Source: a virus
Taxonomy: Duplodnaviria; Caudoviricetes
DNA: 64,000 bases
Virus record (IMG/VR): IMGVR_UViG_3300014208_000026
Coordinates: 193,182-257,181 of that record
Direction: 5' to 3' (one strand)
The notes below the pieces were generated by a model that was given only the letters and a program-made list of their open reading frames with translations, did not search any database and had not been told where the DNA came from. This document shows positions 52,572 to 63,063 of this stretch, piece after piece. Both the position numbers and the translations under genes were made by a program. The first letter of the stretch is position 1, and every line of letters begins with the position of its first letter.

Positions 52572-52632
52572 TCGGTCGAGTCCGGTCCCGAATAGGGTAT
52601 ATAGAAGTAGCCACCTCGGACGGTCCGCACGC

Positions 52633-55203: not shown

Positions 55204-56916
55204 ATGCAAAGCATGAAGCAGCTTCTTCGCTCGATGTTCGTTCACGGACCGGATGACGACAGGGCCGCAGCTTTCCACAACTACCGCCGTTTTGTAGAGG
55301 TGGACCTCGCGTTCGAGGAAGCGGACGATCAGGCTATCTGGACGTACCTCCATAACTTCTACCGGACGAACTCTGAAGCTCCCGACCTGGAGAGCATCCG
55401 AGCCCATTTCTCGATGGCCGGTGAGATCTCGATGACGGACTACCTTGAAGAGCTTCGGGCGTTGAAGCCTGCCTATGGGGGCAACTTCACGCAGAAGGTC
55501 GAGCAGAAGGCCCAGGACCGGCGTGTGAGGTTGGTCGAAGAGGCTCTGACCGAGTCCAGCACGATTCTCACCAAGGGGATCGTGGATAGAAATAAGAAGG
55601 GGGAAGAACGGAAGCTGTTCGGGCCCTTCGAGGCCGTGAACCGGTTTATGGAGCGGGCCCAGAAGGTCGTTGCTCCTACGTTCGGTGGGAATCTGACCGG
55701 TGAGATCATTCACGACACGGAGACTTTCAGGGAGCGATACCTGCGGGTCGAGTCTGATCCATTCTTTGGTGTGGGCTATGCTACTCCCTTGGATCGTATC
55801 AATGAGTATATCAGCGGGGCAAGAAGGAAAGAGCTTTGGATCCATGCTGCGTTTTCGGGAGGTCTCAAAAGTACGCTTGCATTGAATTGGGCCCATTATC
55901 AAGCAATCTATAGAGGTAATACAAGTCAGTATTTCTCTCTTGAGATGCCTAAAGAGCAATGCCACAACATCATGGTTGCCATGCACTCGGCCATGCCGGT
56001 TCCTCGGGAACACCGGATGGCGGAAGGCCGGTTGAAGTGCGGTCTGGCTAAGACTGAGGCGGATCTTGTTCACAGTCCTGGTCTTGACTACTCCCGCCTG
56101 CGTGACGCCAAGTTGTATCGTCCGGATGGTTCTATGTCTCTCCAGGATGTTGGAAACCTCCCCGCGAACGAGCGGAGGTTCCTTTTTGATTATGTTCTGG
56201 CGGATATGGAAGAGGGGCGGTTGAACGTTCCGAAGTGTGACATGTACCCCAACGGGGCGAGCATTCCGTACGGGAAGGTTCATATTGAGGTCGCTGACCC
56301 TGACAAGAACGATTTCACTGTCCTCGACATGAAGGCTAAGGCCCAACTTCTGCGGGCCAAAGAGGATTTCCAACTGATTTTCGTGGACTACGCAGGCTTG
56401 ATGTCTCCCAGGCCGGGAAACAAGTCCAGTAGTCGCACGGACCAGTTGAACGAAGTCATGCGTGATCTGAAGAAGCTGGCCTTGAGCTTCAACCGTGGCG
56501 AGGGCATGGCTGTTGTGAGTCTGTTCCAGCTCAGCCGTGAAGGCTACAAACGTGCTGTATTGCGTAAAGAGAAGTGTGGTGTTCCATTGTATTTGATGTC
56601 GGATTTGTCATACGCGAATGAGTGCGAGAGGAGTGCTGATATTATAACATCTACCTTCGTAGATGATGAATATCGTGCTAATAGTGAAGCTCTGGTTCAG
56701 TGCCTGAAGACCCGTGACGATGCGCCGTTCCCCTTGCACAAGATCGGGGTGCGGTGGAATCATCGTGTTCTTCTGTCCCGCTGGGACGAAGCCGGAACGG
56801 ACCTTGTCGACGCAACTCCCTCTGATATCCGCTCCTCGGATATCGCAACCGAGCGGGATGGTCGAGGGACGGCTGATGATCTCAGTTCCTTGATTAGTGC
56901 TACGGATAACGACTGA
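55204..56916 (+). CDS. dnaB: DnaB-like replicative helicase
   Basis: AAFSGGLKSTLALN; FSLEM; IFVDYAGLM; SLFQLSRE; ERSADII. Confidence 0.85.
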   Translation: MQSMKQLLRSMFVHGPDDDRAAAFHNYRRFVEVDLAFEEADDQAIWTYLHNFYRTNSEAPDLESIRAHFSMAGEISMTDYLEELRALKPAYGGNFTQKVEQKAQDRRVRLVEEALTESSTILTKGIVDRNKKGEERKLFGPFEAVNRFMERAQKVVAPTFGGNLTGEIIHDTETFRERYLRVESDPFFGVGYATPLDRINEYISGARRKELWIHAAFSGGLKSTLALNWAHYQAIYRGNTSQYFSLEMPKEQCHNIMVAMHSAMPVPREHRMAEGRLKCGLAKTEADLVHSPGLDYSRLRDAKLYRPDGSMSLQDVGNLPANERRFLFDYVLADMEEGRLNVPKCDMYPNGASIPYGKVHIEVADPDKNDFTVLDMKAKAQLLRAKEDFQLIFVDYAGLMSPRPGNKSSSRTDQLNEVMRDLKKLALSFNRGEGMAVVSLFQLSREGYKRAVLRKEKCGVPLYLMSDLSYANECERSADIITSTFVDDEYRANSEALVQCLKTRDDAPFPLHKIGVRWNHRVLLSRWDEAGTDLVDATPSDIRSSDIATERDGRGTADDLSSLISATDND

Positions 56917-56934: not shown

Positions 56935-57249
56935 ATGAACCTCAACAAACGACTCTGGAAATGCCGGTCTCATAGATGGTATGGTGCGGAGGACTACGAG
57001 TGTCCTGGTTACGCGGGTACCCTGCGGTGGATTCTCGCCTGGGTTGTGTGGTGTGTTCTAGCCATTCCACCTGTGGTGGTAGGAGTGCCTTCGGCTATAC
57101 TGTTTACGCTCGCAGAAGAGTTTGAAAAGTACAATCACAAACTGCGGCTTTGGATCGCAGGGCCTCTGAAACACAAGAAAGAAACAGAGGAACGGCTGGA
57201 TAAGCTGTATGATGAGTTGGAAGCCAAAGCGGGGGGATATAGAGAATGA
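56935..57249 (+). CDS. Small membrane protein
   Basis: ILAWVVWCVLAIPPVVVGVPSAILF hydrophobic stretch. Confidence 0.65.
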   Translation: MNLNKRLWKCRSHRWYGAEDYECPGYAGTLRWILAWVVWCVLAIPPVVVGVPSAILFTLAEEFEKYNHKLRLWIAGPLKHKKETEERLDKLYDELEAKAGGYRE

Positions 57250-58085
57250 TTGCCCAAGAACTGATTTCTTACCTGACCACTTTGATCTCACCCCCTCCCT
57301 CCTACGGGGAAGCAGTGAAGTTCTACCCGACCCCCGACGTGGATTTGTCTGGCGTGCCGGATGGCACGTTAACAGGGGCAATTGTTTGTGGGATTCCGTC
57401 AGAGGAGCAAGTAGCGGAGTTCATGCGGGCGTTGCGCCCAGGAGCGCATTTCCTGTTGGTCGCCCCCGATGAACAGCCTACGGGGCACACGGGGGCTTGT
57501 CGACTTGAAGATGGGGGTTTTGAGATCCGAGACTCTATTCTTGTGGTCGAAGAGCCAGGACGCCTACACTACGTACCGAAGGCGGCACGGAAGGAGAGGG
57601 AAGCTGGATGCAAGGTGCTTCCCGCCAAGGTCCGGAAGGAAACACGCTGCAAGTTGTGCGACGCCGTGTTGGAAGAGGGAGAGGATTTCGGAGAGTGTGA
57701 AAGTAGTGAAGATGGAGTGCATGAGATTGTTGTAGTAGAGACAAATGAGAAGATTAGAAATTTTCACCCGACCGTGAAAACTATTAAATTAATGAAAAGA
57801 TTACTCAGTACAATATCAACAGATAAGGGCCCCGTCCTTGACCCCTTCTTGGGATCGGGCTCCACGTTGATTGCTTGTCTGGAAACGGGGCATGACGCTA
57901 TCGGAATTGAGCGTGAGGAGGATTACCTCTTGATCGCGGATGCTCGTATCCGGCATTGGGCGCATACCGAGAAGGCCTGGGTCGAGAAGAACGTGGAATC
58001 GGACGTGGACAGCCGCGAGAAGATTGAAGCCCCCAAGGGAGGGGTGTTCGATCTGTTTGGTGGCGGTGGAGTTTTCGGGAAGTGA
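57246..58085 (+). CDS. DNA methyltransferase SAM-binding module fused to a degenerate catalytic-fold copy (no DPPY)
   Basis: LRPGAHF..LEDGGFEIRDSI; HYVPKAARKERE; RNFHPTVK; VLDPFLGSGST..IGIERE. Confidence 0.85.
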   Translation: MIAQELISYLTTLISPPPSYGEAVKFYPTPDVDLSGVPDGTLTGAIVCGIPSEEQVAEFMRALRPGAHFLLVAPDEQPTGHTGACRLEDGGFEIRDSILVVEEPGRLHYVPKAARKEREAGCKVLPAKVRKETRCKLCDAVLEEGEDFGECESSEDGVHEIVVVETNEKIRNFHPTVKTIKLMKRLLSTISTDKGPVLDPFLGSGSTLIACLETGHDAIGIEREEDYLLIADARIRHWAHTEKAWVEKNVESDVDSREKIEAPKGGVFDLFGGGGVFGK

Positions 58086-58729
58086 GAGTCATTACGGTAG
58101 CCCGAAAACCCTTAGTTGGAACTGTTGCACAAACGGTCCTGAAGTTCGGAACAGGCGGGATCAATATCGACGGAACGAGGTTGGCTTATTCAGGGGAAAC
58201 GGATGCTGCAAGCGCTACCCCGCAGGGTAGGTGTACCGCAAAGTCGGGGGCTCTCGCAGGCGGGACACAACACGATGGAGATCGATCTGACTTTGTCCGT
58301 CCAGAACAAAAAGGAAGATATCCGGCCAACCTCATTCTCTGCCATCTTCCAGATTGTGCTTGTGTCGGAATGAAGAAGGTGAAGCCCCTCGAAGGGTATC
58401 GGCCCAATCCGGTTGCTGTCCAGTCCGATGGGGCCATTCAGTTCAACCAGAAGGCTCCTGGATACCAGAAAAAGAGTTTCACGGGGGAGGACGGGGCCGA
58501 AGAGGTTCAGGATTGGAATTGTGTGGAGGGGTGTCCCGTCAGAGAGTTGGATCAGCAGAGCGGTGTTGTTCCTACAGGTTCCTGGTGCCGACAGAAGGAT
58601 GGGGCACACCCATTCGGGGATGCTGTAGGGTCCCCTTACGAGAACTGGAAACAGGTTAAAGAAACTCCTGGAGGCGCTTCCCGTTTTTTCAAACAGATAC
58701 AAGGTACCAGCAAGGGCGGCAAGGAATGA
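58082..58729 (+). CDS. DNA methyltransferase middle (TRD-like) module B1
   Basis: RVITVARKPLVGTVAQ..GTGGINID..GRYPANL..GGASRFFKQ; no DPPY or FxGxG. Confidence 0.8.
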   Translation: MRVITVARKPLVGTVAQTVLKFGTGGINIDGTRLAYSGETDAASATPQGRCTAKSGALAGGTQHDGDRSDFVRPEQKGRYPANLILCHLPDCACVGMKKVKPLEGYRPNPVAVQSDGAIQFNQKAPGYQKKSFTGEDGAEEVQDWNCVEGCPVRELDQQSGVVPTGSWCRQKDGAHPFGDAVGSPYENWKQVKETPGGASRFFKQIQGTSKGGKE

Positions 58730-59367
58730 GAGTAATCACGGTTGCCCGTAAACCCCTGGCGGGGACCGTTGCACAGACCTCCCTTCTCCACGGAACGGGT
58801 GGGATCAATATCGACGTCTGCCGTATTGGGCTCAACCCAGGGTACTGTTACAACGCAGACCGGAACGGAACTACGTTCCACGGGCAGGTTGGGGATAGAA
58901 TTCGGCAGACTGCAGAGAAGAAAGGCACCGAGACGATTGAGTCGACCAAGGGCAGGTGGCCAGCCAACCTTGTGATTTGCCACAGGGAAAGTTGTGAGTG
59001 TGTAGGTGTCTCTGAGATCACAGGAATCCGAAAAGATACTCGACCTGAGGGGGACGGCGGGCGAGAGGACAGAACCCAATGGCGTATTCGCCCTACAGAG
59101 CAAACTCGCCGAGGCTATGCTGACGAGAACGGGGTTGAAAAAGTTCCAGATTGGAACTGCGCTCCCAACTGTCCCGTTGCGGATCTGGACAGACAGAGCG
59201 GGGATAAAACAGGGGCTTCGGCTCCCGTCAAAGGAACTGAGCCGAGTGAACCGACAGATCGGGTGTACGGAAAGTACAAGAGGATTCCCGCGACGATTCA
59301 CGGGGACTCGGGCGGGGCTTCGCGGTTCTTCAAACAGGTACAACGGGAAAGGGACGGGGGATGTTAG
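58726..59367 (+). CDS. DNA methyltransferase middle (TRD-like) module B2
   Basis: RVITVARKPLAGTVAQ..GTGGINID..GRWPANL..GGASRFFKQ. Confidence 0.8.
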   Translation: MRVITVARKPLAGTVAQTSLLHGTGGINIDVCRIGLNPGYCYNADRNGTTFHGQVGDRIRQTAEKKGTETIESTKGRWPANLVICHRESCECVGVSEITGIRKDTRPEGDGGREDRTQWRIRPTEQTRRGYADENGVEKVPDWNCAPNCPVADLDRQSGDKTGASAPVKGTEPSEPTDRVYGKYKRIPATIHGDSGGASRFFKQVQRERDGGC

Positions 59368-59567
59368 GGGTGAAAAAGACAAGTTTAGTGGTGCAGGTTC
59401 AAGGGGCGTGCTCTGCTCCTATTCCAGAGTTGTTGGGGGCGCTTCAAGTCGTTTTCGAGGAACTAGGGTTCCAGGTGATAGTGGAGGTTCCTGACGAATT
59501 CCCAGAGGCATGGGACGGATTTGTTGAGAGTGAGACAGTTCTCATCAAGTATGGCGGGGATATCTGA
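59361..59567 (+). CDS. Hypothetical protein
   Basis: 68-aa ORF overlapping the B2 stop. Confidence 0.5.
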   Translation: MLGVKKTSLVVQVQGACSAPIPELLGALQVVFEELGFQVIVEVPDEFPEAWDGFVESETVLIKYGGDI

Positions 59568-59658
59568 GCAGGCGAGATTGCGGATCGGGTATATAGAATG
59601 ACACGGGGGCTAGTGGCGCCCCGGGTTTCGTAGAGACTACAAACAGGGAGACAAGAAG

Positions 59659-59790
59659 ATGAAGGAGCCTACGCAAGACCGTAGGGCGGTCCAGACTCTT
59701 CGCCTCCGGTTGGGAGACAGCTTCGAGGTCATTAAGACTCTTGAAGAAGGTTCCATCGGGGCGATAGTCACGGATCCGCCCTACGGTTAG
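59659..59790 (+). CDS. DNA methyltransferase N-terminal 43 aa ending at the DPPYG catalytic motif
   Basis: AGGGAG RBS; MKEPT..LRLGDSFEVIKTLEEGSIGAIVTDPPYG*; absent from ORF track; same frame as 59812 ORF. Confidence 0.85.
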   Translation: MKEPTQDRRAVQTLRLRLGDSFEVIKTLEEGSIGAIVTDPPYG

Positions 59791-59811
59791 TCACTCTAAG
59801 GTATTGAATTT

Positions 59812-61035
59812 ATGGGAAAATCGTTCGATTCCTTGACTACTAAGTCGAAGCTTTTTGATTGTCTGCCAGGAATTTGGTTTGAAGAAACGGGGGTTCCTTT
59901 TCCTCTCGTAGAAACTAAAGTACGGCTTCAATCGGTCCAAGACAATCCGCTAAAGCCGAACAACTGGCTTGAGATGGTGAAGGCAGCTTCGGCTGAACAA
60001 GAAATTCCGCAAGCTGAGTACCTTTCTATGCCGGATTGGCAGAAAGGCGGAAATTTTACCAAACCCGGCATTGGAGATCGAGAGACCGCATGGCCTTCTT
60101 TCTCCAGTGACCCCATTCATGGAACGGCCAATCCTACTTGTGCTACTTGCGGTGGTCGTCTCCGAGGTAAGAAAAAGTGTTCTTGTGAGCAGCCTCATGA
60201 CCACTGGAAACCTTTGGGGGCTTCTAAAAAAGCTTCAGAAGAGCATATTCTTGTTGCACAGCCGGTTGTATCCCGAGCCTCTCAGGCCCACGGAATGCAA
60301 GCATGGCACGAGGGCTGGCTTCGTGAGTGCTTCCGAGTTCTCCGTCCAGGCGGAGTGATTAAGGCATTCAGTGCGACTAGAACGCAGCACCGCCTAGCGG
60401 CTGCAATGGAAGCTGTAGGGTTTGTGTTGGACCCGAAGGAGAGTCTGGAAGCCTGGGCGTATGGGTGTCTCTCGGCCGACACGGAGATTCTGACCCAAGA
60501 CGGCTGGAAACCTGGATTGACGGTAGAGGCCGGGGAATTGGTATCCTGTTGGGACCCAAAGACGGACACCTCTATGTTCTATGCCGTGGAGCGGGTAACA
60601 AGGGCTCCTTTCAAGGGTTCCCTTGTGCGTCTCACGGGAGAGGGTACGGACCAACTCCTTACGCCCAATCACAGGGTCTATCACAAGACTCCTGAGGGCG
60701 AGGGTTGGGAGGTAACTAGGGCCGACGCTCTGTTGGGGGTTACGGTCGAAGTGCCCCTGGATGCTGGAAAGACCACGCAAGCCTCTGGGGAGTTGGTTTC
60801 TTACGACGGAATGGTGTGGTGCGTGAAGGTGCCTACAGGGGCTTTCTTTGCGAGAAGGGGTAATCAGGTATTCCGGAGTGGGAATAGCGGATTTCCCAAG
60901 AGCCTTAACGTGAGTAAAGCTTTGGAAAAGATGGGAAACACGGAAGCTGCAAAGGTTTTCGCCGGAATTGGCACGGCGATCAAGCCAAGCTGGGAGCCGT
61001 TTTTGGTGGGTAGGAAACCAATAAAAATAATTTAG
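59812..61035 (+). CDS. DNA methyltransferase catalytic-domain remainder with mini-intein
   Basis: (GIEF)MGKSFD; WLRECFRVLRPGG..AFSATRTQHR; WAYG/SGFPKS; GTAIKPSWEPFLVGRKP. Confidence 0.88.
   Translation: MGKSFDSLTTKSKLFDCLPGIWFEETGVPFPLVETKVRLQSVQDNPLKPNNWLEMVKAASAEQEIPQAEYLSMPDWQKGGNFTKPGIGDRETAWPSFSSDPIHGTANPTCATCGGRLRGKKKCSCEQPHDHWKPLGASKKASEEHILVAQPVVSRASQAHGMQAWHEGWLRECFRVLRPGGVIKAFSATRTQHRLAAAMEAVGFVLDPKESLEAWAYGCLSADTEILTQDGWKPGLTVEAGELVSCWDPKTDTSMFYAVERVTRAPFKGSLVRLTGEGTDQLLTPNHRVYHKTPEGEGWEVTRADALLGVTVEVPLDAGKTTQASGELVSYDGMVWCVKVPTGAFFARRGNQVFRSGNSGFPKSLNVSKALEKMGNTEAAKVFAGIGTAIKPSWEPFLVGRKPIKII
60466..60885 (+). mobile_element. Mini-intein (140 aa, no endonuclease)
   Basis: CLSADTEILTQDGWK (block A); LLTPNHRVY (block B); YDGMVWCVKVPTG.FFARR..SGN then +1 Ser. 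Confidence 0.92.
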
Positions 61036-61051
61036 TTTTAAGGTATAGGCC

Positions 61052-62035
61052 ATGAAACAAGAGTATATATGTAAAAGATGTGGCAAAGCTGTTATAAAAG
61101 ATGCTTGTCAAGTTAGAAACCCTGACAACGTTTTTTGTTCCAGAGAGTGCAGTAATGCCAAGTTAGGAGAGCAGAGAATATGTCCTACATGTGGTGAACC
61201 TTTTTATGCTAAATTGTCTGCAATACTTCGAGGCGAGTCTACTTACTGTTCTCATAAATGTTCGAATCCTGCTCGGGGGAGAAAAGGTGAGCAGAACGGG
61301 AATTGGAAAGGTGGACGTTTCGTGCGTAGTGATGGCTATATTGCGGTCCGAATACCCGATGGCACCTATAAGCTAGAGCACGATGTGTTGATGGAAGAGC
61401 ATATAGGGCGTAAGTTGACTCCCGATGAAAACGTGCATCACATAAATGAGGACAGAGGAGATAACCGCATAGAGAACTTAAAGCTAGTTTCACGGGCTGA
61501 ACATATCTCTGAGTTTCATCCGTCGCAAAAGGACCCTGAGTGTTGGGTTTCTTTAACCTGTTTTGGGTGCGGTGTGGTTTTTGAGAGGCATAAATGCCAG
61601 TTGTTTAAATCGAAAAGGCTTTTCTGTTCTTGGGAGTGTTTCATTGAAAATCAGTGGTCCGACGTCATAGGTCCAGATTGGACCATATCTAAGTTGCACA
61701 AAGAGATTAAAGGGTCCCTAGTTTCTCTGGGATTTGAAACTACTACTAATTTAGGCGTAGGAAAATGGATTATAGACGAGGCAGACCCTAAAAGAAAAAT
61801 AGCTTTGGATTTGAGAGGCTGTTATTGGCACTCCTGTCCTCTTTGTGGGTTTCATGGGCCCGAAAGCAATCCCGAGAGAGATGCCAAGAAACAGGCGGGA
61901 CTGGAGAAAAAAGGTTGGACAGTTTTATGCATATGGGAACATGAGTGGCAGCAGGATCCAGAGGGCTGCATAGATAGGGTAAAAGAAATGTTCCTGGCAA
62001 AGAAAGAATCTGACATTGCAAGGAATGAGACGTAA
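61052..62035 (+). CDS. Zn-ribbon/HNH endonuclease with C-terminal Vsr/DUF559-like domain
   Basis: CxxC..FCSxxC repeats; EHDVLMEEHIGR.L..ENVHHINEDRGDNRIENL; LRGCYWHSCP..RD..L..GWTVLCIWEHE; AT-rich. Confidence 0.88.
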   Translation: MKQEYICKRCGKAVIKDACQVRNPDNVFCSRECSNAKLGEQRICPTCGEPFYAKLSAILRGESTYCSHKCSNPARGRKGEQNGNWKGGRFVRSDGYIAVRIPDGTYKLEHDVLMEEHIGRKLTPDENVHHINEDRGDNRIENLKLVSRAEHISEFHPSQKDPECWVSLTCFGCGVVFERHKCQLFKSKRLFCSWECFIENQWSDVIGPDWTISKLHKEIKGSLVSLGFETTTNLGVGKWIIDEADPKRKIALDLRGCYWHSCPLCGFHGPESNPERDAKKQAGLEKKGWTVLCIWEHEWQQDPEGCIDRVKEMFLAKKESDIARNET

Positions 62036-62437
62036 ATGTGTTCCTCTCCTGAAGAAAAAGCCGACTCGGCCGACAGGGAGAGCACTTCCGAAGCCGAAGC
62101 CCTCGCTGCATGGTCCGCCTATGGTCGTGTTCTTGCGGGAGTCATCCCCGTTGACGCAGAAGCGGAAGCCAGGGTAGAGACTTACATGACCTCGCTGTCA
62201 GAAGGTTCCGTGACGATTCGTCCGTTGAATCGTAAAGCCTCTCTGGGGGACAGGACTAACCATATCCACGCCCGTCTCCGCAGCCCCTTCTTCTTTCACA
62301 AGGACCCCAATGAGCCGGACCCGACTTCTGCCGAGGTAGCACAGTTCCAGGCAGAGCTTCGTAAGCAGGCGGAGGAAGAGGCGTTGGAAGATGAACTGCG
62401 GTTCTTGGAGGAGTTTTCTGCGGAGTTTAAGAAGTGA
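62036..62437 (+). CDS. Hypothetical protein
   Basis: 133-aa ORF abutting the HNH stop and overlapping the B3 start (GTGA). Confidence 0.6.
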   Translation: MCSSPEEKADSADRESTSEAEALAAWSAYGRVLAGVIPVDAEAEARVETYMTSLSEGSVTIRPLNRKASLGDRTNHIHARLRSPFFFHKDPNEPDPTSAEVAQFQAELRKQAEEEALEDELRFLEEFSAEFKK

Positions 62438-63063
62438 GAGTGATCACAGTAGCCCGTAAACCCCTGAGTGGAACCGTGGCTCAGACCGCTCTCCTCCATG
62501 GTACGGGCGGCTTGAACATCGACGCTACCCGCATCGGGGTTTTCCAGAACACAACTCCCTCGGGCGCGAACCGGTTCAACCAGCGGCTACAAGAGCAGGG
62601 CTATCGACCTGGGGCCTATCCCGTAGAAGAGAAGGTGCCAGAGGGCGGTTCCGGTAGGTGGCCTTCAAACCTCGTTTTGGTTCACAAAGAGAGTTGTTGC
62701 TGTACGGGCACGAGAGAGGTTCGTTCCGACGGGCACTTCCCCAAGGCCCGTTCCTCGGGGAGTCAGGTTTGCGGGCCTTCGGGACACGCCGGACAAGAGG
62801 GACTGGAGGAACGGAAAACTGACGGGGAAGCGGTTGAGGCTTGGGAGTGTGCCGCAGGTTGTCCGGTGAAAGAGTTAGACGAGGGAGTGGGGGTTTTGAA
62901 AAGCGGGGCGGTGAAACAGGGATGCATGAGGCATAATAGCACCCAACCGAGCCGTGGTGGGTTTGAAGGGGGATTCGGGGATTCCCCTCTAACGGGGTTC
63001 GGGGATTCAGGTGGTGCCTCCAGGTTCTTCAAACAGGTACGGGGCGAGAGTTCTGGTCACTAG
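62434..63063 (+). CDS. DNA methyltransferase middle (TRD-like) module B3
   Basis: RVITVARKPLSGTVAQ..GTGGLNID..GRWPSNL..GGASRFFKQ. Confidence 0.8.
   Translation: MRVITVARKPLSGTVAQTALLHGTGGLNIDATRIGVFQNTTPSGANRFNQRLQEQGYRPGAYPVEEKVPEGGSGRWPSNLVLVHKESCCCTGTREVRSDGHFPKARSSGSQVCGPSGHAGQEGLEERKTDGEAVEAWECAAGCPVKELDEGVGVLKSGAVKQGCMRHNSTQPSRGGFEGGFGDSPLTGFGDSGGASRFFKQVRGESSGH

Follow-up and report, generated by a model that had tools for sequence, protein, structure and literature searches.

Methylase pieces at the locus

The 64,000-nucleotide stretch studied here (the window) forms the final 64 kb of a 257-kb groundwater virus contig (IMG/VR record IMGVR_UViG_3300014208_000026). Between positions 57246 and 63063, its plus strand carries separate genes that each resemble one part of a one-chain phage DNA methyltransferase. 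C' contains the S-adenosylmethionine (SAM)-binding half, A contains the DPPY catalytic half, and three paralogous middle modules, B1, B2, and B3, represent the region in between. These genes follow the order C', B1, B2, A, B3, which is not canonical. A first-pass annotation made from the letters alone had described the locus as a split methyltransferase with three interchangeable specificity-like modules, and the open reading frames (ORFs), end motifs, and GTGA/ATGA overlaps on which it was built are all present in the window. It had missed four features, namely a degenerate second N-half in C' (Cn), a 12-nt gap in A, a mini-intein in A, and an HNH endonuclease gene between A and B3.

C' (57246-58085, 279 aa) contains LHYVPKAARKEREAG, followed by HPTVK and DPFLGSG, and is composed of two halves: Cn (57246-57560, C' residues 1-105), a degenerate N-half without DPPY, and the SAM-binding half Cc (57561-58082) with motif X (HPTVK) and motif I (DPFLGSG). 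The GTG start of B1 (58082-58729, 215 aa), a putative target-recognition subunit, overlaps the C' stop in GTGA, and B2 (58726-59367, 213 aa) overlaps B1 in ATGA. The third free-standing middle module, B3 (62434-63063, 209 aa), shares a GTGA with the stop of the small upstream orf133. These start/stop overlaps are compatible with co-expression of the parts. Subunit A begins with a segment of 43 codons, A-N (59659-59787), in which DPPY (59773-59784) is followed by the codon GGT (59785-59787). The A body (59800-61035) comprises motifs V-VIII and ends in KPSWEPFLVGRKP; the ORF finder places its start at the ATG at 59812.

Mapped onto a reference profile of 478 positions, which was built from 12 one-chain relatives, the pieces cover the methylase in order and without loss, as had been proposed. 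A-N aligns to positions 4-31 and ends in DPPYG, A aligns to 45-112 and 155-186 and ends in EPxxxxRKP, B1, B2, and B3 occupy the central variable region (177-381/390), and the tail of C' (YVPKA..KERE..HPTVK..DPFLGSG) takes up positions 377-475. The order of the beta permutation is thereby recovered on the one-chain profile, with motif IV, motif VIII, the variable region, and then motifs X and I. The ARKP strand occurs in duplicate, as A ends with one copy and each B opens with another. Among the phage families, B1-3 align to phrog_3008 at its positions 2-82 (B1 at 2-81) and C' at 109-218, while A and the N-terminal part of C' align to the same region of phrog_67.

Family membership is distributed in the same piecemeal way. 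Against Pfam PF01555 (N6_N4_Mtase, gathering threshold 26.7 bits), C' scores 61.6 bits and lies above the threshold, A alone scores 19 bits and lies below it, and the B modules give no match to this family; the locus as a whole qualifies, not every piece. The catalytic motif IV, (D/S/N)PP(Y/F/W), is present as the DPPY of A-N, before the 12-nt gap, and the SAM-binding motif I (FxGxG) follows motif IV in the form of the DPFLGSG of C'. The catalytic domain is not contained in one polypeptide and is spread over the separate ORFs A-N/A, B, and C'. Two first-pass assignments need amendment. The catalytic part, delimited as 59659-61035, does end in EPxxxxRKP and terminates with KPSWEPFLVGRKPIKII and a stop at 61035, but it is not one ORF, as TAG and TAA follow DPPYG and a mini-intein lies further downstream. 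C', described as the SAM-binding part, does carry motifs X and I but also the degenerate half Cn.

The locus resides in a replication module, flanked by DnaB (55204-56916) and an NAD-dependent ligase (from 63131). With a CheckV completeness of 49%, the contig points to a phage of about 0.5 Mb. The available 257 kb contain exactly one A, one C', and three B, in addition to three further methylases, all of which are complete and ordinary. A second, independent groundwater study yielded contigs that are identical to pieces of the locus, 59602-59798 among them; owing to these contigs, the odd features of the locus are not assembly errors. A DNA search with the whole locus against GenBank phages gave no match.

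Middle modules, related huge phages, and a modelled complex

Each B module starts with MRVITVARKPLxGTVAQT and ends with GGASRFFKQ, and the mutual identity of B1-3 is about 40%. Comparison of 90 free-standing B homologues delineates four conserved blocks, a set of H/C/C/C residues, and three hypervariable loops. The cysteine-histidine motif initially given as H-x3-C-x-C..C-x3-C holds in part: H-x3-C .. C-x3-C is invariant in all 90 homologues, whereas the extra 'x-C' cysteine varies. Between B1, B2, and B3, the scaffold is 63-66% identical and the loops 17-25%, with many indels, which agrees with the described divergence of the loops. B1 has its nearest relative in P0152 (64% identical), which is nearer than its own paralogues. 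In a quick maximum-likelihood tree with Shimodaira-Hasegawa-like approximate likelihood ratio (SH-aLRT) support, B1, B2, and B3 do not group together. B3 is placed separately from the other two, and the sister of B1 is a module of a different contig (support 95, starred), in a starred clade with two modules of the related contig L013. Because they do not group, the three modules represent old lineages that were kept separately, as opposed to recent duplicates. As an explanation for the B genes, recombination cassettes or phase variation were rejected, since the repeats at the ends of these genes are only 66-83% identical in DNA.

B occupies the site between motifs VIII and X at which beta-class enzymes have their target-recognition domain (TRD). 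Outside the B region, what remains of the one-chain proteins accounts only for the catalytic fold. The role of B as a specificity element is suggested on two grounds, where it sits in the enzyme and how it varies; the hypervariable loops and this same position further suggest that three B modules may provide three different specificities. B1-3 match no Pfam family at E up to 0.1 and no NCBIfam family, and do not belong to Methylase_S. A B profile found no meaningful match in the PDB, hence no solved homologue.

The pieces belong to large families. Word-indexed searches, limited to proteins of about 0.55-1.75 times the length of the query (117-373 aa for B2), yielded 1443 homologous clusters for B (query B2), 478 for C', and 2461 for A within the scored length range. 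The best hits are mostly free-standing, and many are located on contigs of 100-536 kb. For B2, the best matches are mostly proteins of about 200-230 aa without a Pfam domain, and most are unnamed. A profile of B1-3 matched 13561 proteins (representatives clustered at 50% identity), and in 69 of the best 150 representatives B stands alone, with an end-to-end match at about 200-230 aa. In the ESM Atlas, B clusters are labelled 'hypothetical protein' and are 91-100% viral, and the only annotated GenBank phages matching B are those with one-chain mycobacteriophage methylases and one uncultured 485-kb phage. The expected conservation of the fragments is thus found as large families of intact proteins and, judged from these comparisons, the split is not decay but a set of parts that appear to be maintained as viral families. 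Decaying, functionless pseudogene fragments would fit the in-frame stops in A and the non-canonical piece order. Yet the ORFs are intact at about 40% paralogue identity, the blocks that dock B in the model described below show conservation, and the families to which the genes belong are very large. Gene starts are also coupled to the stops before them, and two complete relatives, of 436 and 536 kb, share the layout. We therefore consider decay extremely improbable.

The module architectures of the homologues range from the canonical A-B-Cc to A-B-B-Cc and longer chains with up to four B, and further to B-Cn-Cc and B-B-B-Cn-Cc, the last of which unites three complete B modules in a single chain. 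As Rosetta-stone evidence, such fusions indicate that B, C', and A function together, and the tandem-B chains imply that more than one B is normal in this family. In related huge phages (contigs with L numbers), the breakpoints are identical, the single C' is constant, the number of B ranges from 2 to 7, and A is multiplied in one case; every examined genome with C' also has A. Shared breakpoints with a variable B copy number had been put forward as a check of the split, and this pattern is what the relatives display. B-Cn-Cc fusion proteins occur in L013, L019, L092, and L093. In L013 (536 kb, complete), whose DnaB is 42% identical to that of the window, DnaB is followed by an ORF, B-Cn-Cc, A, and five further B; an additional partial B at the far contig end brings the totals to one A, one C', and about seven B. 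L093 (436 kb, complete) has B-Cn-Cc, one A with gap and intein, and about four more B, which amounts to about five B in all. L017 shows the order C', A, B, thymidine kinase gene, B, and L019 has B-Cn-Cc plus an A with gap. On L012 (contig positions ~98300-106800), a row of about six free-standing A and 6-7 B comes after one C'. The notion of one catalytic core fits this phage with its one A, but some relatives multiply A.

C' itself is more than a SAM-binding half. Its Pfam N6_N4_Mtase match is limited to profile positions 148-219, and phrog_67 aligns to C' residues 57-237. Relative to the catalytic half, which it copies in degenerate form, Cn is shortened; it retains the strands and helices near LRPGAHFLL and GFEIRD but has CGIP at the DPPY position. 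Across the 478 clusters of C' homologues, the DPPY-equivalent position is not conserved. An AlphaFold2 (AF2) model of C' alone reaches a predicted local distance difference test (pLDDT) value of 86, and its halves are not packed into a single canonical methyltransferase fold. Over the full length, its template modelling (TM) score against beta-class methylases is only ~0.23 (Foldseek), and a second structural aligner assigns residues 1-100 and residues 113-255 of C' each to a different half of class I methyltransferases (Z 7-8). B modelled alone has a pLDDT of 64, with the N-terminal strand below 50, and was left out of fold searches owing to this low confidence. A C' that does not close alone and a B that is poorly ordered alone are compatible with obligate assembly.

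Assembly was modelled with C', B, and A of L017, whose A has no gap and no intein, using an own alignment per chain and A as the scored partner. The interaction prediction score from aligned errors (ipSAE) was 0.87 in all three runs versus 0.32 for the best of three controls, so that the multimer check envisaged for the split enzyme is passed by the proteins of a relative. The mark used is reached by 58 of 80 solved complexes and by 2 of 110 mismatched pairs, counts that apply only approximately here, as own alignments and three chains were supplied. At least 72% of the contacts are common to the three runs, and the partner pLDDT is at least 68. This pass denotes likeness of the model to one-chain beta-class structures and is not proof of binding.

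Among the contacts that the model predicts most confidently, the strand of A that leads into DPPY (residues 23-26) pairs with the Cc strand that leads into motif I, DPFMGSG (C' residues 194-197). This predicted pairing is the canonical Rossmann-closing contact, made in trans. Helix 78-82 of A packs on the equivalent helix of Cn (PTGHTGAC, 83-87) in a pseudo-symmetric contact, and Cn may thereby act as a conserved, non-catalytic second N-half and pseudo-dimer partner of A. The B blocks GRWPAN and GGLNID contact the A segment GWGTALKP, and B has a single docking site, on the C-terminal segment of A. The B interface residues have an entropy of 0.95 bits versus 2.47 bits for the rest (p = 1e-8). 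In the modelled complex, B touches A via its conserved blocks and leaves the hypervariable loops free.

The tandem chains raise the question whether the B modules might act jointly in one complex that reads a longer or bipartite site, much like the two TRDs within a Type I HsdS subunit, and which would result in one or a few composite specificities instead of three independent ones. Single chains with two to four B, as well as B-B-B-Cn-Cc, place several B in one molecule, and each B retains its own ARKP strand. Joint action conflicts with the single docking site of the model, and the 2-7 B genes that accompany one A and one C' in close relatives are hard to fit to a fixed joint architecture. 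We regard joint action as unlikely and favour B modules that are used as alternatives.

Coding gap and intein of subunit A, and the adjacent endonuclease gene

In A, the reading frame is interrupted directly after DPPYG. The gene reads GAT CCG CCC TAC GGT, followed by TAG TCA CTC TAA, and continues with GGT ATT GAA TTT ATG GGA AAA, so that the gap (59788-59802, plus strand; TAGTCACTCTAA) comprises 12 nt with two in-frame stops, TAG at 59788 and TAA at 59797, and a potential landing codon GGT at 59800-59802. A jump from GGT to GGT yields DPPYG-IEFMGK, which is the family consensus. Two hallmarks of a T4 gene 60-like bypass are present in the window, as the codons for take-off and landing match and a stop comes directly after take-off.

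A scan of viral contigs for DPPYG, an immediate stop, and EFMGK within 30 nt, in which the E and F codons were fixed by the pattern, revealed seven more cases (L092, L093, L094, L096, L097, which is the same contig as L019, L098, and L100). All gaps are found in free-standing A genes of huge-phage contigs, and three of the seven also have an intein. The layout is shared: a first GGN, a gap of 5-11 nt that opens with a stop, another GGN, one codon for Leu or Ile, and the stretch GAR TTY ATG GGN (EFMGK). Over the eight contigs including the window, the gaps measure 5, 9, 11, or 12 nt. The Gly codon is repeated exactly in three of the seven other contigs (GGC/GGC) and in its first two bases only in the remaining four, and a GGN-to-GGN hop restores DPPYG(L/I)EFMGK in every case. 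Readthrough is ruled out because the 5- and 11-nt gaps shift the frame. Recoding of a stop such as TGA was rejected as well, since the ATGA and GTGA overlaps change frame and the gap of A has both TAG and TAA. Termination followed by re-initiation at the FMGK ATG, which would release a separate 43-aa DPPY peptide, leaves the in-frame G-(L/I) codons unexplained; these codons before EFMGK are kept in frame though the search pattern does not demand them. From its sequence, the gap in A looks like a candidate programmed ribosomal bypass, and the gaps of the eight contigs form a candidate family of short programmed bypasses.

If A were non-functional owing to its stops, C' and B could instead constitute a non-catalytic DNA binder, a SAM-binding, sequence-specific regulator, decoy, or reader that lacks DPPY. 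Family-wide absence of DPPY from the B-Cn-Cc fusions and the two stops that interrupt A are in line with such a binder. It is at odds with the recurrence of the gaps in seven other contigs, where Gly codons are matched and the downstream frame is intact, with the presence of A alongside C' in every genome examined, and with the model, which pairs A canonically with the SAM-binding half. A binder of this kind is, in our estimation, highly unlikely, and we retain A as the putative catalytic subunit.

A second interruption of A is a mini-intein of 140 aa (60466-60885, plus strand) inserted in WxYG|SGFPKS. It possesses the N-terminal Cys (C-LSADTEIL), block B TxxH as TPNH, and a C-terminal Asn followed by a +1 Ser (...SGN|S). 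Its penultimate residue is Gly instead of His, likewise in the same-site inteins of L020 and L025, and its match to TIGR01445 is weak (E 0.022, 15.7 bits versus a cut-off of 24.5). In intein-free relatives, YGSGFPKS is uninterrupted. Larger inteins of about 320-345 aa occupy the same site in L020 and L025 (ending in GN) and in L093 and L098 (homologous, about 320 aa); the central stretch missing from the mini-intein probably holds a homing endonuclease in these larger forms. A would have to be restored by protein splicing.

At the A/B3 junction, a free-standing gene of 327 aa (61052-62035, plus strand) encodes an HNH and Vsr/DUF559-like endonuclease. An HNH domain beside a conserved gene is identified (HNH_3, 37.4 bits versus a Pfam cut-off of 24.8), the protein also matches MTES_1575/DUF559, and its best PHROG is an HNH/homing endonuclease family (3e-26). 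By sequence, it is probably a homing endonuclease. The guanine-cytosine (GC) content is 43.4% for this gene and 47% for the last 150 nt of A versus 55.1% for the window (region 60886-62035), which suggests a recently arrived mobile cassette and conversion of the exon sequence beside it. We rejected a group I intron at the A/B3 junction, given the ARKP strand on both sides and relatives that split at the same place without an insert, no RNA family search having been run.

These elements lend themselves to an alternative account, in which selfish elements fractured a one-chain methylase, A, B3, and C' complement each other, and B1 and B2 are spare paralogues with another or no methylation role. 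The low-GC HNH gene lies exactly at the A/B3 junction and the adjoining end of A is low in GC too, A contains an intein, and in L025 an HNH gene parts A-B from Cc. Moreover, published work by Gosselin, Arsenault, and Gogarten on the one-chain actinophage family covers both its inteins and its hidden HNH insertions and shows the family to be a hotspot for inteins and homing endonucleases (PMC9957025, PMC11855218), and T4 gene 39/60, split by the mobA cassette and associated with a bypass gap, provides a precedent for an enzyme gene divided by a homing endonuclease (bioRxiv 10.1101/2022.08.31.505936). However, L013 and L017 are split alike without an endonuclease gene at the junction. B1 and B2 keep every conserved docking block, are translationally coupled to C', and have closer relatives in other phages than in their own genome, and free-standing B genes form a very large family. 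Fracture with spare modules is hence distinctly unlikely as a full explanation of the locus. Fragmentation nevertheless probably began with homing-element invasions and is still accompanied by them in the form of the HNH gene and the intein.

Two further observations concern the architecture of A. In L020 (3805-6927), a one-chain relative, an in-frame insertion of about 290 aa lies exactly between DPPYG and FMG, in addition to an intein. This insertion may be a ShiLan-like hidden element, and the DPPYG/FMG site looks like an insertion hotspot. In the A of the window, FMGK is followed by an additional segment of about 130 aa (59870-60280) with C-x2-C ... C-x-C .. H-x-H, a possible zinc site, which is common to the A of L019 (8382-9359) and absent from the 200-aa A of L013 and L017.

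Proposed assembly and comparison with known systems

We consider it rather probable that the locus encodes a modular multi-subunit beta-class DNA amino-methyltransferase (adenine-N6 or cytosine-N4), for which B1-3 serve as alternative specificity subunits. C' would be the hub, with SAM bound by its Cc half, and A would bring in the DPPY catalytic half and complete the Rossmann fold with Cc in trans, while Cn would pack against A as a pseudo-dimer partner. One B at a time would dock on the C-terminal segment of A via its ARKP strand, GTGG-NID, GRWPAN, and ASRFF, leaving the three hypervariable loops exposed as the DNA-reading (target recognition) surface. As B1, B2, and B3 would be alternatives, one A and one C' could give rise to up to three enzymes with different targets, and several methylated targets may shield the phage DNA from several host restriction systems. 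Maturation of A would require a ribosome hop from GGT to GGT over the 12-nt gap, after which the mini-intein would splice itself out. Extended to the related phages, this reading becomes a plug-in system, in which C' and A are programmed for several motifs by a library of free-standing B that phages exchange (three in this genome and as many as seven in relatives) and A is produced via hop and splicing; we give this extended form about an even chance.

Several points weigh against such an enzyme. Where several complete B share one chain, or several A accompany one C' as in L012, joint action or a particular A pairing is suggested rather than free swapping. The modelled complex was built from the proteins of a relative, whose C' is 44% identical to that of the window, and with own alignments, and its high score may reflect memory of solved one-chain beta-class folds. 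Furthermore, A of this phage requires two unproven maturation steps, and failure of either would leave a dead enzyme. Cn is unaccounted for in a scheme with two N-halves, A and Cn, per one SAM-binding half. Finally, the PDB profile search detected no likeness between B and a solved target-recognition domain.

The closest known proteins are the one-chain phage methylases (N6_N4_Mtase, phrog_67), which have the same motif order, DPPYG-EFMGK, YGSGFPKS, EPxxLARKP, GTGG-NID/GRWPAN/ASRFF, HPTVKP, and DPFxGSG. Those of actinophages are prone to intein and HNH/LAGLIDADG insertions at conserved sites (PMC9957025, PMC11855218), as is the locus described here. They are single polypeptides with one middle module, whereas the locus has three kinds of gene product, three B, and a dead N-half fused to the SAM-binding half. 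A two-piece split, A | B-Cc, at the same ARKP breakpoint is seen in phrog_3008, a phage 'DNA methyltransferase' family of about 244 residues. There, B is still joined to the SAM-binding half, and Cn and multiple free B are lacking, unlike in the locus.

Among systems with several specificities, Trautner and colleagues reportedly described multispecific C5 methyltransferases of the Bacillus phages SPR, phi3T, and rho11s, in which several TRDs on one core serve anti-restriction. Both these enzymes and the proposed one have one core that serves several target modules, and the one-chain relatives with two to four tandem B are their direct analogue. The SPR-type enzymes belong to the C5 class and have their TRDs on a single chain. 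The locus has the motifs of a DPPY amino-methyltransferase and encodes its B as separate genes, which places it outside that family. In Type I HsdS/HsdM and in the B subunit of Type IIB BcgI, a separate specificity subunit programs the methyltransferase, and its swap changes the target. These systems are gamma-class with an intact one-chain catalytic domain, whereas here the catalytic fold would be split too. HsdS has two TRDs and coiled-coil spacers, and B has no Methylase_S match. The likeness to SPR-type enzymes and to HsdS swapping is thus a functional analogy, and the locus belongs to neither family. A C5 methyltransferase fold assembled from two separately translated polypeptides is known from M.AquI and M.EcoHK31I, which consist of two fixed parts and have no interchangeable specificity subunit.

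The T4 gene 39/mobA/gene 60 cassette shares with the gap of A the matched GGN take-off and landing codons and the stop right after take-off. The T4 gap spans 50 nt, has defined signals in the RNA and the nascent peptide, and belongs to a topoisomerase gene, whereas the candidate gaps here span 5-12 nt and lie in a methylase gene. If real, the recurring short gaps after DPPYG would add a rare new natural case of translational bypass.

A survey of jumbo-phage methylases makes no mention of a split layout (PMC7824862), and our literature search did not reveal any beta-class methylase described as having free-standing recognition subunits. Within the literature searched, a catalytic fold split over two proteins and combined with several interchangeable recognition subunits does not appear to have been described for beta-class amino-methyltransferases, and would be new for them. 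Should the proposed mechanism be true, the B, C', and A families would explain a large block of dark matter in huge-phage genomes and represent a compact phage route to evading many restriction systems. It would also offer a natural scaffold for programmable DNA methylation.

Some minor features lie within or near the methylase genes. The small orf68 (59361-59567, plus strand) overlaps the end of B2, and has neither a family match in profile searches (Pfam, NCBIfam, PHROG) nor a counterpart in related loci; orf133 (62036-62437, plus strand), mentioned above, likewise has no family match in these three profile collections. Motifs similar to GTATATAGAGA are found 10-70 nt before four plus-strand gene starts (SNF2, C', A, and ligase), at 52597, 57235, 59589, and 63096. 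Their placing suggests a phage promoter or leader element, though their total is not above chance (5 observed versus 6.3 expected). In three of the related contigs, a conserved ORF of 143-165 aa with the motifs HALHG...P and VVVV.G..F lies beside the methylase parts (L013: 8412-8843, L017: 7865-8362, L019: 4975-5418).

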